NCBI GenBank assembly: GCA_964420085.1
Contig: CAYQRI010000001.1
Span: 31,372 to 95,371 of the forward strand
Source of the DNA: an uncultured Ruminiclostridium sp.
GTDB lineage: Bacteria; Bacillota; Clostridia; Oscillospirales; Oscillospiraceae
DNA length: 64,000 bases
Direction: 5' to 3'
Part shown: positions 13,672 through 25,414 of the stretch, piece by piece
Position numbering within the stretch: the stretch's first letter is position 1
Layout of the letters: the number at the start of each line of letters is the position of its first letter
Notes under the pieces: model-generated
The model's database searches: none
What the model was told of the DNA's origin: nothing
The model's input: only the letters and a program-made list of their open reading frames with translations
Made by a program: the position numbers and the translations under genes

Positions 13672-13975
13672 TAAAAAAACGTCCCCTGTCGTGTTAAGAC
13701 AGAGGACGATGACAGCTTAGTATCGTGGTACCACCTCTATTTACTTCTTTCTCACGAAAGAAGCCTCATGGACTTTGCAAAACTTCAGAGCCTCAGTTCA
13801 GACAAAATCCCAACGCAGTAACGGGCGTACCCGACGTACCCTACTACTTCCCCATACGGAAGGTTCAAGCAGTTGCTCCAGGAGGTAACTTCACCCGTGC
13901 CGCTCTCCCCCTTTCACCAAACGGGGGTTCTCTATGCAGCAAAACACCGGTTACTTCTTCCCTTCATCACAGTGG
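13672..13975 (-). ncRNA. T-box riboswitch (Tyr specifier)
   Basis: Minus strand: stem I with AGAGA and GGTGAAA motifs, specifier GAAGT-TAC-C (UAC at 13885-13887), T-box AATAGAGGTGGTACCACG, terminator CGTCCTCTGTC...GACAGGGGACG-TTTTTT. Confidence 0.92.
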
Positions 13976-14017
13976 CAGTCTCGGCAGACTTGAGAGTCTG
14001 CCGTTTAAACTGTGCCC

Positions 14018-21414: not shown

Positions 21415-22386
21415 TTAGTCCTTCATAGCACCGACTTCGGTGAAGTACTTCTGAGCACCGGGGTGGAAGGGGATGTCGATGCCGGAAACCGCAGTTTCAA
21501 GCTTCAGCTCAGCACCCTTTGCATGACCTGCGGTGATATCTGCCTGGTTATCAAAGATACCCTTAACCAAAGCATAGACTGCATCCTCGGAAAGGTCGTT
21601 ACGAGCGATGATGGTTGCCATAACAGCAACGGCGGGCACGTCTTCCTTGACGCAGCTATAGGTGTTTGCAGGGATGGTGCCATAGGTATAGAAGCCATAA
21701 TCCTTCATCAAAGCATCTGCGTGCTCCTTATCAATGGGCAACACGTTGAAGCTATAGGTGGAGGAGAGCTCGCTGACAGCGGTGGTAGGATAGCCTGCAA
21801 CCACAAAAGCGGCATCGATGGTGCCGTTCTTCAGGGAGTCGGCAGAGTCTGCGAAGCTCTGGTTGTTCTTGACAATGTCGGTCTCAATGTCAATTCCATA
21901 AGCGGCAAGAATCTGACGGGCATTGAACTCCACGCCAGAGCCTGCATCGCCCACGCTGACCTTTTTGCCCTTGAGCTGGTCAATAGAGGTAATACTGGAG
22001 TTTGCAATAATCTGAACGTATTCGGGGTAGCAGGACATCACAGCAGAATAGCTGGTGATGGGCTCCTTGCCATTATACATATCGGTTGCAGTGTGAGCAT
22101 AGTACATGACGTCGTTCTGAACGATAGCAAGCTGGTCAGCACCGGTATCGACCAAGTCGATGTTTGCGGCAGAAGCTCCTGTGGATTCTACGGTGATATT
22201 CAGGGTGTCGCCGAGCTTCTCGTTAAGCACGTTGCCAAGAACGCTGGAGAAGCCGTAGTAGGTGCCGGATGTGCCGCCGGTTGCCATGTTCATAGCGGTG
22301 CTGCCACCGTCGGCACCGCCGCCGCCGCAAGCGGTCAAGCCCAGGGCCATGATAGCAGTCAGAATCAGTGCAAGAGTCTTTTTCAT
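21415..22386 (-). CDS. TAXI family TRAP solute-binding lipoprotein
   Basis: Lipobox LTAC, ATGGTSGTYY, STGASAANI, VSVGDAGSGVEFNA, IPFHPGA. Confidence 0.93.
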   Translation of the reverse strand: MKKTLALILTAIMALGLTACGGGGADGGSTAMNMATGGTSGTYYGFSSVLGNVLNEKLGDTLNITVESTGASAANIDLVDTGADQLAIVQNDVMYYAHTATDMYNGKEPITSYSAVMSCYPEYVQIIANSSITSIDQLKGKKVSVGDAGSGVEFNARQILAAYGIDIETDIVKNNQSFADSADSLKNGTIDAAFVVAGYPTTAVSELSSTYSFNVLPIDKEHADALMKDYGFYTYGTIPANTYSCVKEDVPAVAVMATIIARNDLSEDAVYALVKGIFDNQADITAGHAKGAELKLETAVSGIDIPFHPGAQKYFTEVGAMKD

Positions 22387-22639: not shown

Positions 22640-24058
22640 TTAGTCTTTGCGCTTTCCAAGCTTATCCTGGTTAGCGAAGTGCTCCTTGGTGCACTTCACG
22701 ACCACGCCGGACAAAGCAACAACAGCAATCAAGTTGGGAATTGCCATCAGACCATTGAGGGTATCAGCGATAGCCCAAGCCAGATCTAGCTTCATCGTAG
22801 CACCAACAACGATGACCAGAACGAAGATAATCTGATAAGGTCTGATCGACTTAGGACCAAACAGGAACTCGCAGCAACGGGTGCCGTACAAAGCCCAGCC
22901 CAAAACGGTGGAGAATGCAAACAGTGCAATACCGATTGCAATGAGCAGAGAGCCGGCTTGGCTGCCAAAAACGGTACCCAAAGCGGCGGCATTCAAAGAA
23001 GTGTCGCCCTGCACGCCATAGTTCAAATCCAGACCTCCGCCCTTAGCGGCACAGAGGATGGTCAAACCAGAGAGTGTGCAGATGACGATGGTATCGACAA
23101 AGACTTCAAAGATACCATAGAGACCCTGCTTGACAGGATCGGTTTCAGAGGTGGTTGCGTGTGCCATAGGTGCGGAGCCCAAGCCGGCTTCGTTGGAGAA
23201 CACGCCACGCTTCACGCCCCAGCTGATAACCATGATAACGGAACCGACTACGCCGCCGGTCACGCCTGCGGGAGAAAATGCACCGACAAAGATATCCTTA
23301 AAGACAGCAGGCAGGGTGCCAGCATAGCAACCGATGACAACCAAGCAAGCCAAGATATAGATGACTGCCATAACGGGAACCAGCTTCTCTGTGACGGCGC
23401 CCAAACGCTTGATGCCGCCGAAAAGAACGATGGCAACCAGAATTGCCAAAACGATACCCAGCACCAGATTTACTGTGCCTTGACCGGTAAAGTCGGGATT
23501 AAAGGACAGCACTGCGGTATTGATGGAGCTGACGATGGTGCCAACCTGAACGGCGTTGCCGATACCGAAGGCTGCCAGAGCGGCAAAAATACTGAACAGG
23601 ACACCGAGCCACTTCCAGTTCTTGCCCAAACCATTCTTGATGTAATACATAGGACCGCCGACCCAGTCGCCGTACTCATTTCGCTCACGGAACTTAACGG
23701 CGAGCAGAACTTCGGAATACTTGGTACACATACCGATGAGGGCTGTGATCCAGAGCCAGAAGATGGAGCCTGCACCACCGAGGGTAATGGCGGTGGTAAT
23801 ACCGGCGATATTGCCGGTGCCAACTGTACCGGCCAAAGCCGTGGACATTGCTTGGAAGGGTGTCATTTCGCCCTTGCCGGCCTCGCTCTTTTTGAAGATT
23901 TTACCGATGGTGTTCTTCATAGCGTAGCCGAACTTCCGGAACTGGACGCCTCTGGTCATCACGGTGAGCAAAATACCTGCACCGACCAAAAGGACGAGCA
24001 TAGGAATGCCCCACACGACACCATTGATGGCATCGTTGATGCTTTCAATTAGTTTCAC
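22640..24058 (-). CDS. Alanine/glycine:cation symporter (AGCS, AlsT/AgcS-like)
   Basis: ALAGTVGTGNIAG, GDWVGGPMYYI, RGVFSNEAGLGSAPMAHA, FVDTIVICT, LMAIPNLIA; GTG start. Confidence 0.95.
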   Translation of the reverse strand: MKLIESINDAINGVVWGIPMLVLLVGAGILLTVMTRGVQFRKFGYAMKNTIGKIFKKSEAGKGEMTPFQAMSTALAGTVGTGNIAGITTAITLGGAGSIFWLWITALIGMCTKYSEVLLAVKFRERNEYGDWVGGPMYYIKNGLGKNWKWLGVLFSIFAALAAFGIGNAVQVGTIVSSINTAVLSFNPDFTGQGTVNLVLGIVLAILVAIVLFGGIKRLGAVTEKLVPVMAVIYILACLVVIGCYAGTLPAVFKDIFVGAFSPAGVTGGVVGSVIMVISWGVKRGVFSNEAGLGSAPMAHATTSETDPVKQGLYGIFEVFVDTIVICTLSGLTILCAAKGGGLDLNYGVQGDTSLNAAALGTVFGSQAGSLLIAIGIALFAFSTVLGWALYGTRCCEFLFGPKSIRPYQIIFVLVIVVGATMKLDLAWAIADTLNGLMAIPNLIAVVALSGVVVKCTKEHFANQDKLGKRKD

Positions 24059-24129
24059 GCAAATCTCTCCTTTTTTCTCAAAATCTCTTTCTCAGGCTTT
24101 GAAGCAAATACCAAAAGACACTTTTTACC

Positions 24130-24179
24130 AACCTCAAAAACGGAGTGCCGCAGGACTGCGGCACTCCGTTTTTGAGGTT
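24130..24179 (-). terminator. Leader terminator/attenuator upstream of the AGCS gene
   Basis: Perfect 24-bp inverted repeat AACCTCAAAAACGGAGTGCCGCAG with a 2-nt loop. Confidence 0.75.
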
Positions 24180-24215
24180 AGGATTCATCCGTTCGGAGAT
24201 GGAATATAGCGAATC

Positions 24216-24335
24216 CCATCCGTTTTACTTCCCTCAGTGCAGAGCAAACGCAATATATCCTGCCCCTTCGGCACCTGCTTGCGCAGGCTCCCCGGAGGCT
24301 TGCAGATCTACAAACATTTTTCTACTTCCTCTCCA
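24216..24335 (-). ncRNA. Glycine-riboswitch-like leader RNA (variant)
   Basis: Minus strand CCUCCGGGGAGCC-UGC-GCAA-GCA-GGUGCCGAAGGGGCA resembles the glycine aptamer GGAGAG...CCGAAGGAGCA. The 3' core reads CUCUGCACUGAGG rather than CUCUCAGG. TATAAT lies at 24345-24340, the AGCS gene downstream. Confidence 0.6.
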
Positions 24336-24655
24336 TTCCATTATAGTATTTCGGGGAGAAAACGTGATAAAATGCCACAGATCGCATCTGGCAGTATTTA
24401 CCTTACTGCTTTTTATTTTAATCTGCATTCTCCAAAAAAGCAAGCGATAAACACTATCTTTTAAATATTTTGTTACCAAATCATAAACTTTATAGGCTTT
24501 CCCAAAAAATCCTTGCATAATATCAACATTCTTACCACATTTGTCTGACTGTATCCAAGCAAACACACATACGCCACCAAGCAGTCGGTAAAATGGTTGC
24601 TTTTCCTATCACTTAAATTAGAGATATTTTGAACTGTAGGCAGCAAAAATTAAAA

Positions 24656-24696
24656 CAGCGGGAGCTGTGGCGAAAGGATCATCACAGTTCCCGCTG
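24656..24696 (-). terminator. Hairpin after the ATPase operon
   Basis: CAGCGGGAGCTGTG...CACAGTTCCCGCTG. Confidence 0.6.
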
Positions 24697-24718: not shown

Positions 24719-25414
24719 TTACGCCGGAGAGGTTTCAAAGGTGGCAAGGCGTGCGGCGTCTTCTGCCCGACGCTCCTCCAGTGCCTTCGCAAGCACCATC
24801 TCCTTCACCTTCATCAGACGGATGGTACTGCTGCGTTCGTTCTCGTCCAACCGCATGGTAATATATTTGATGCTTTCCTGCATTTGCGGAATCTTCACAT
24901 ATTCCAAGGCATTCACACGACGTCTGGTTTTTTCGATTTCCTCTGCCAAAAGCTGTGCCGTTTTTTCGATTTGTGCGAGCTTCAGCATATCCTGAAAGAC
25001 GCCCGAGAACGCTTCCACCGCCTGATCCAGCTCACACGAGGTAGAAGCAAAGCCGTAAGGATATGCACCCGTTTCGTTCCCCTTCTGTTCAAAGCTATAA
25101 ATAGGAACATCCACGCTCATGATATTGCGGAAGGACAGCTCCAACTCTACGCTCTGCCCCGGGCAGAGCAGCGCCAGCTCCAAAGGCTCGGTCGACATCA
25201 GTGCGGAGGCCGTCAAAAAGGCAGCGTGTGCCTGCTTGAGACCTTCCTCCACACGGGTACGGATGGCACGGTTCTCCCGCACCGTTTCCAAAAACTGCTT
25301 CATCAGCTCATCTCGTTTGTCTTTCAAGAGCTTATGCCCCTGCACCGCTGTCTTCAGACGCTTTTTCAGGCGGGTAAGCTCCATTCTGGTGGCGTTTCCA
25401 ACCATAGCACCCAT
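24719..25414 (-). CDS. ntpD: V/A-type ATPase subunit D
   Basis: NATRMELTRLKKRL...GHKLLKDKRDEL, IEKTRRRVNALEY. Confidence 0.95.
   Translation of the reverse strand: MGAMVGNATRMELTRLKKRLKTAVQGHKLLKDKRDELMKQFLETVRENRAIRTRVEEGLKQAHAAFLTASALMSTEPLELALLCPGQSVELELSFRNIMSVDVPIYSFEQKGNETGAYPYGFASTSCELDQAVEAFSGVFQDMLKLAQIEKTAQLLAEEIEKTRRRVNALEYVKIPQMQESIKYITMRLDENERSSTIRLMKVKEMVLAKALEERRAEDAARLATFETSPA

Follow-up and report, generated by a model that had tools for sequence, protein, structure and literature searches.

The AGCS gene and its leader

The 64-kb stretch of DNA analysed here (the window) comes from a gut bacterium. On its minus strand, a leader element at ~24345-24130 lies 5' of an intact gene for an AGCS (sodium:alanine/glycine symporter) protein. 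A preliminary description had likened this element to a glycine riboswitch and proposed either shifted specificity or decay. Reading the minus strand directly, we found every sequence element that it listed. The gene and the 5' part of the leader comprise the following features.

22640-24058, minus strand: AGCS gene, 472 aa, GTG start; Pfam PF01235 (Na_Ala_symp), 451 bits
24070-24065, minus strand: ribosome-binding site GGAGAG of the AGCS gene
24301-24386, minus strand: predicted long 5' hairpin (RNAfold MFE and centroid agree; z = -2.5; equalled by 4 of 200 shuffles)
24345-24340, minus strand: TATAAT, followed by GGAAUGGAGAGGA at 24339-24327
24415-24443, minus strand: probable promoter, with -35 TTGCTT (24443-24438), a 17-nt spacer and -10 TAAAAT (24420-24415)

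The window AGCS protein is 78-83% identical in amino-acid sequence to its sibling orthologues, and the 194 invariant or near-invariant columns of an alignment with 120 homologues are free of substitutions private to it. Its closest known relative (P0001, 92% identical) comes from a Logan assembly. The transporter gene is clearly under purifying selection, and its leader must therefore permit expression. The start codon (24056-24058, minus strand) is GTG, and ATG occupies the same position in the other 14 of 14 aligned leaders.

The V-type ATPase subunit D gene (24719-25414) is followed at once by a terminator-like hairpin with a T-tract (24655-24668, minus strand), which indicates that the AGCS gene is a separate transcription unit. 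On the 3' side of the AGCS gene lies an NMT1-like binding-protein gene (21415-22386, minus strand). Several siblings have at this place, directly 3' of the riboswitch-controlled AGCS gene, a ZMP/ZTP riboswitch (RF01750, 58-61 bits; L027:3063-3143, L031:3058-3139, L039:3161-3240 and L020:1114-1194). The V-ATPase subunit D gene and the NMT1-like neighbour are both missing at the relatives' loci, so orthology rests on the common leader and on protein identity. The sole Rfam match at gathering threshold in the window is a canonical T-box leader at 13699-13976 on the minus strand (RF00230, 101.5 bits).

Many siblings carry this AGCS subfamily as tandem arrays of 3-4 paralogues with 62-83% identity (e.g., G014:C9, G034:C1, G035:C154 and G016:C45); the glycine leader stands at the first gene only, and the inner copies have different upstream regions. 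The window's genome (G000) has this AGCS copy and one distant paralogue only. Its sole canonical glycine riboswitch (C11:16271-16373, minus strand; locus L012, 59.7 bits) precedes an AGCS paralogue (C11:14804-16132) that is 41% identical to the window protein.

The preliminary description had the leader start after TATAAT. The hexamer is present, but it is probably not the real promoter: it has no -35 hexamer, is unconserved and falls within the apical loop of the predicted 5' hairpin. The promoter upstream of it (-35 TTGCTT or TTGCAA, 17 nt, -10 TAAAAT or similar) is kept in 15 of 15 aligned AGCS leaders of the genus. It agrees with the consensus at 8 of 12 positions and was therefore omitted by a promoter scan requiring 9 of 12. 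With this conserved element as the true promoter, the transcript probably starts near 24408 and the leader would be ~350 nt long. The base of the predicted 5' hairpin would sequester AUCUG (24307-24303), the ancestral 5' strand of P1.

Orthologous leaders are canonical glycine riboswitches

We compared the 420 nt upstream of each AGCS homologue in 40 species genomes of the same genus (Evtepia-like), 39 of which encode close homologues of the window protein, often in tandem arrays. Across the genus, 111 glycine riboswitch matches lie above the RF00504 gathering cut-off of 32 bits, distributed over 31 of the 40 genomes. The leaders of the closest orthologues, from ~11 sibling species, contain a canonical singlet glycine aptamer with CUGGAGA, P2, GCCGAAGGGGCAAGAC and CUCUCAGGCAAAAGGACAG. 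Ten of these orthologous leaders score 48.8-65.3 bits and that of G018 scores 39 bits, against 59.7 bits for the window genome's own C11 copy.

In a multiple alignment of 15 leaders, the window shares the promoter, part of the 5' block, the terminator core and the ribosome-binding region; its P2 and GCCGAAGGGGCA also align with the canonical leaders. The conserved 5' block of the relatives (GUGAAUMCCGUCAGAUGAAU) is kept in part, and the linker GGAUGRC just 5' of their aptamer is replaced. Parts of the sibling leaders that are not constrained are unalignable between species. The alignment indicates that the window leader is homologous to the canonical leaders over its whole length. Since the orthologous sibling leaders are canonical glycine riboswitches, the likeness to a glycine aptamer that the preliminary description had recognized reflects homology and not chance.

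The core of the aptamer has been rewritten

The remnant of the aptamer is laid out below; the retained half is 24261-24287.

24293-24302, minus strand: J1/2 insertion of ~10 nt, CAAGCCUCCG, where relatives have GAGA only (MAFFT alignment with canonical orthologous leaders)
24298-24293 and 24222-24216, minus strand: CCUCCG and its proposed partner CGGAUGG, the P1 of the preliminary description (4 pairs, a bulged U, 2 pairs)
24293-24288, minus strand: GGGGAG
24287-24274, minus strand: P2, consisting of CCUGC, a GCAA loop and GCAGG (5 bp; stem identical to that of L015)
24272-24261, minus strand: P3 5' strand GCCGAAGGGGCA, after P2 and a U
24244-24232, minus strand: CUCUGCACUGAGG replacing CUCUCAGG
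24231-24244, minus strand: altered pocket strand, CUCU-GCACUG-AGG-G for canonical CUCU-C-AGG-C, which is invariant in 10 relatives
24216-24230, minus strand: altered J3/1 and P1 3' strand, AAGUAAAA and CGGAUGG for the relatives' AAAAGGA and CAGAU
24197-24221, minus strand: competing 9-bp hairpin, GGAUGGGAU, loop UCGCUAU, AUUCCAUCU; present in every RNAfold MFE from 219 nt up
24204-24194, minus strand: UUCCAUCUCCG, which pairs with the P1 3' strand (RNAfold)

All components of the aptamer-like unit that had been proposed (P1, GGGGAG, the GCAA-capped P2 and GCCGAAGGGGCA) are found at 24298-24216. The P3 5' strand equals the genus consensus at 12 of 12 nucleotides, its core GCCGAAGG is invariant in 12 aligned sequences, and it has the A-rich bulge of the corresponding RF00504 strand (GCCGAAGGrGCA).

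Three strands of the core have changed. In J1/2, all 11 canonical sequences compared read CUGGAGA; the window keeps AUCUG and reads AUCUG-CAAGCCUCCG-GGGAG, so that the motif GGAGA is interrupted and the insertion supplies CCUCCG, the 5' strand of the proposed P1. In the pocket, CUCUCAGGC, the 3' strand of the P3 bulge in the Rfam consensus structure, has become CUCUGCACUGAGGG: CUCU is kept, GCACUG stands where the adjacent C was, and G has taken the place of the closing C. The replacement of CUCUCAGG by CUCUGCACUGAGG had thus been described correctly. By the Vibrio cholerae numbering, the glycine-contacting U is probably the last U of CUCU, which would place the 6-nt replacement directly beside the contacting nucleotide. 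The altered strand is also predicted to fold on itself into a mini-hairpin in which CUCU pairs with AGGG. In J3/1, the motif AAAAGGAC, invariant in the relatives, has become AAGUAAAAC, and the P1 3' strand has changed from CAGAU to CGGAU. With J1/2, the P3-bulge strand and J3/1 all rewritten, the canonical glycine pocket most likely cannot form.

The alternative pairing of the P1 3' strand with UUCCAUCUCCG, another point of the preliminary description, is recovered by RNAfold as the 9-bp hairpin at 24221-24197, which rivals any P1 built on CGGAUGG. Type-2 singlets are marked by a ghost-aptamer stem-loop on the 5' side, with a P0/k-turn docking on the A-rich bulge of the aptamer. We looked for the k-turn in the window leader, where the long 5' hairpin is predicted, and in the relatives' leaders; none could be assigned.

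Fit to RF00504 and predicted folding

The covariance-model comparison that the preliminary description had proposed gave no good canonical alignment. With relaxed thresholds, RF00504 aligns to 24305-24210 at 13.3 bits (E = 3.2-10), against the cut-off of 32 bits, and the pocket columns are altered; at the gathering threshold the element is not reported. Six of the 22 pairs in the Rfam alignment are non-canonical, three of eight in P1 and three of ten in P3, the latter at its base; P2 is intact. The window element departs from the family on five of the six sequence and structure features tested. A relaxed cmscan of 24000-24450 for some other Rfam family returned only chance, hairpin-driven matches on the terminator.

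As a reference for folding we took five canonical aptamers, the C11 copy and those of four relatives. The P1-P2-P3 junction is the MFE in four of them and the centroid in the fifth, and it is absent from the window MFE, where the inserted GCCUC instead takes up the P3 5' strand. For the isolated aptamer, folding z-scores do not discriminate, as canonical relatives also have z ~0. Constrained aptamer-like folds of the window RNA lie 3-9 kcal/mol above the MFE and do so without a canonical P3. Rescue of the canonical fold through a register shift of P3 (UGC/GCA) or a P1b helix (CCUC/GAGG) was considered and rejected on energies above the MFE and the lack of J3/1: modelled explicitly, the rescue fold has -19.9 kcal/mol, compared with -25.5 for the best constrained fold with the same P1 and -34.5 for the MFE, and the rescue and constrained folds are both without J3/1.

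The terminator is kept and its anti-terminator appears rematched

The 3' part of the leader contains two further elements.

24130-24179, minus strand: intrinsic terminator with perfect 24-nt arms (24179-24156 and 24153-24130), -45.4 kcal/mol
24232-24252, minus strand: predicted anti-terminator strand, pairing with 24177-24157 of the terminator 5' arm

The perfect 24-bp terminator of the preliminary description is present. Its GC-rich 14-bp core (ACGGAGUGCCGCAG / CUGCGGCACUCCGU) is 88-94% identical to sibling terminators over 32-37 nt and is followed by UUUUU (24140-24136) inside the 3' arm; flanks CCUCAAAAA and UUUUUGAGG extend the stem to 23-24 bp. A GC-rich hairpin with a U-tract, placed between promoter and start codon, marks it as Rho-independent. 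A consensus terminator scan misses it because the U-tract lies within the lengthened stem. The relatives have CUUUUGA as 5' flank, and in the window this is CCUCAAAAA, which complements the 3' flank exactly; the change perfects the palindrome and removes the partner for CAAAAG. The perfect 24-nt palindrome resembles the outcome of quasi-palindrome correction via template switching, although this is speculation.

When relatives' transcripts are cut before the terminator 3' arm, the aptamer 3' strand pairs with the terminator foot in most of the 11 (MFE), through CAAAAG/CUUUUG and through CUCU, whose partner in the terminator 5' arm is GGAG or AGAG. RNAalifold recovered both helices from 10 aligned relatives, with eight of ten pairs possible in every sequence and the other two each mismatched in one. 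Double-sided covariation was absent from these helices in the 10 aligned sequences, the aptamer side being invariant. Without glycine, the aptamer 3' strand (CUCU...CAAAAG) would pair with CUUUUG...GGAG at the terminator foot and block termination; with glycine, the ligand would hold that strand in the aptamer, the terminator would form and the gene would be off. The relatives' layout is thus predicted to be an off switch, in agreement with reports that describe the glycine riboswitches of transporter genes as type-2 singlets or off switches (Crum et al. 2019, PMC6944388; the off-switch layout from Khani et al. 2018, as cited there).

Window transcripts cut at the same point also adopt an anti-terminator fold (MFE; z = -2.2; 3 of 200 shuffles). 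CUCUG/CGGAG of the relatives is retained within UGCUCUG/CGGAGUG, UGCG/CGCA is added, and UGAGG (24236-24232) with CCUCA (24177-24173) stands in for CAAAAG/CUUUUG. Anti-terminator complementarity has apparently been re-established by compensation, although the predicted pairings are suggestive only: in a duplex scan no other part of the leader pairs more strongly with the 5' arm than this strand (-19.6 kcal/mol), but 9 of 200 shuffled leaders do as well, a marginal result. The terminator 5' arm has a second predicted candidate partner, CUGCAAGCCUCCG (24305-24293), and the 9-bp hairpin at 24221-24197 and the pocket-strand mini-hairpin are likewise predicted to compete with anti-terminator pairing.

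The variant is unique, and the same leader has decayed in two other species

We searched for further copies of the variant at several depths. BLAST of the 221-nt element against 36 genomes of the genus and 24 further genomes of the order found the terminator core only. Variant-specific patterns gave 14 matches in 185,579 species genomes, all of them chance matches in unrelated coding or other contexts, and five in JGI metagenomes, again all chance and in unrelated contexts; 400 family genomes gave two, at three mismatches and in unrelated contexts. By pattern, the 40 genus genomes hold no second copy. A looser genus pattern, common to the remnant in G019 described below, matched the window and G019 only, at a forward rate no higher than that of the reversed-pattern control. 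No collection searched contained a second representative, and the collection of homologues that the preliminary description had recommended therefore gave no sign that the altered pocket is conserved or covaries. The variant arose within a leader that is otherwise genus-specific, so more members are possible only in the window's own lineage.

Two other orthologous leaders have no RF00504 match at E <= 1. The leader of G019 (L028, G019:C98, 5' of an AGCS gene that starts near locus position 1947) keeps the promoter, a remnant GUCAAAGGGGCAGG and the ribosome-binding site, and has lost P1, P2 and the terminator. The leader of G030 (L039, G030:C1, 5' of locus position 1501) keeps CUGGAGA, GCCGAAGGGGCAGG and the terminator, and has lost P2 and the CUCUCAGGCAAAAGGAC strand. 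Judged by their sequences, these are independently degraded versions of the same glycine leader. An apparent sharing of the window's TATAAT region by G019 was rejected, as the alignment places that match at the conserved upstream promoter.

A relic of a glycine off switch as the probable reading

Taken together, we consider it probable that the window leader is a lineage-specific, glycine-blind relic of a singlet off switch, in which anti-termination has been kept or repaired, leaving a leader that attenuates at a fixed level. Its established basis is the homology to canonical leaders, the loss of core motifs, the uniqueness of the variant, the intact gene and the predicted alternative pairings; from these it most likely follows that glycine is no longer bound and that the leader has ceased to respond to it. 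Three core strands have been rewritten, by the ~10-nt J1/2 insertion, by six nucleotides for one C beside CUCU and by loss of AAAAGGAC; the terminator has been kept with a longer stem and the anti-terminator apparently rematched (UGAGG/CCUCA, with CUCUG/CGGAG retained). The product would be a glycine-unresponsive attenuator with fixed, probably leaky read-through into a selected AGCS gene. As to the two outcomes first proposed, decay fits the sibling scores, the insertions and lost motifs, the six non-canonical pairs and the two other degraded leaders, and shifted specificity finds no comparative support. The leader is thus most likely a case of riboswitch decay and not a new class of sensor.

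Compared with an RF00504 type-2 singlet off switch, the window leader has the same AGCS gene class, the same descent from canonical copies with a common promoter, terminator and ribosome-binding region, the P2 hairpin and A-rich P3 5' strand GCCGAAGGGGCA, and a terminator whose formation would compete with a predicted pairing of the aptamer 3' strand. It differs in scoring 13.3 bits against 32, in a J1/2 GGAGA interrupted by ~10 nt, in CUCUGCACUGAGGG for CUCUCAGGC and AAGUAAAAC for AAAAGGAC, in a mispaired P3 base, in the absent upstream linker, in UGAGG/CCUCA for CAAAAG/CUUUUG and in a terminator stem of 23-24 bp. Ghost aptamers are degraded glycine aptamers that keep scaffold elements only (PMC5066625, PMC6944388). 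The window leader, too, has lost binding-site motifs while some helices persist, which is the degradation route proposed for glycine riboswitches; a ghost, however, serves an adjacent intact aptamer, whereas here the degraded aptamer is the leader's only one.

Several observations sit less comfortably with a relic. The AGCS gene has no relaxed constraint and yet stands behind a 23-24 bp hairpin, which argues for some working anti-termination, possibly regulated. The unchanged P2, the 12-nt P3 5' strand and the new complementary P1 5' strand could reflect continued selection on an aptamer-like fold. The changes are clustered in the aptamer 3' half and not evenly spread, although in a rough count this is not significant (Fisher p ~0.06-0.09), and the anti-terminator complementarity barely exceeds that of shuffled leaders (9 of 200).

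An unlikely alternative is a working riboswitch whose remodelled aptamer senses another ligand, for instance a different small amino acid among those that the transporter moves. The bound ligand would stabilize CCUCCG/CGGAUGG and so choose between anti-terminator and terminator. In favour of such a switch, the gene is intact and under selection behind a strong terminator; P2, GCCGAAGGGGCA and the newly made P1 complementarity are present, and the fold constrained to the proposed P1 is within 3 kcal/mol of the MFE. An altered-pocket class would also not be unprecedented, as glycine-riboswitch variants with mutated ligand-binding cores are reported to reject glycine (Weinberg et al. 2017, PNAS 114:E2077, as cited in PMC9481103). 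From the description given there, those variants share with the window leader a glycine-aptamer scaffold with an altered binding core, but they recur as a class, whereas the window leader stands alone and its large insertions are shared by no relative. Against this alternative, the altered strands occur in no homologue, so covariation cannot be read from this one instance; what has changed is the junction strands, through large insertions, and not a few pocket positions through substitution; the score is ~40 bits under that of the relatives; the P3 base is broken; the relatives' pre-aptamer linker GGAUGRC is not kept; and the same leader is plainly decayed in two other species.

In a related form, which we hold to be just as doubtful, the leader would be a young, one-lineage riboswitch rebuilt from the glycine aptamer, with the insertions in J1/2 and the pocket making a new core for a different transported metabolite. 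The matching changes (UGAGG/CCUCA and the new P1 5' strand) would then keep the aptamer coupled to the terminator. If so, a change of specificity would have been caught soon after it arose, while siblings retain the canonical ancestor.

A non-canonical core that still senses glycine, as an off switch like that of the orthologues, is distinctly less credible. The association with an AGCS gene fits, CUCU (with the probable glycine-contacting U) and the 5' pocket strand GCCGAAGG are both kept, and an anti-terminator/terminator pair is still predicted. Against this, the C directly 3' of CUCU is replaced by six nucleotides, and the GGC closing P3, J3/1 AAAAGGA and J1/2 GGAGA, all invariant in every canonical relative, are altered; the element scores 13.3 bits only. 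The P3 bulge is the site of glycine binding, where a conserved U touches the ligand, and one U-to-A substitution in this pocket is enough to abolish binding (Ruff and Strobel 2014, PMC4201829); the same is true of singlets (Ruff et al. 2016, PMC5066625).

That assembly or consensus errors produced the aberrant strands and the true leader is canonical is very improbable: the genome is a typical metagenome-assembled one (188 contigs, 90.8% complete), but the locus lies mid-contig (position ~55,500 of a long contig) and contains no N. Its numerous changes are scattered and complement one another (UGAGG/CCUCA; the perfect 24-nt palindrome), unlike a chimeric join or a collapsed repeat, and the one other glycine aptamer of the genome differs too much to have been the donor.

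Implications

If the relic reading is right, this locus would offer a dated snapshot of riboswitch decay, in which the canonical switch persists in eleven siblings while here the sensor has been destroyed, the terminator strengthened and the anti-terminator rematched, and two other lineages have moved further along the same path. It would open no new question unless a ligand response were found. The leader would illustrate how expression platforms can outlive their aptamers, and it counsels caution in annotation: a glycine-like leader need not mean a glycine sensor.
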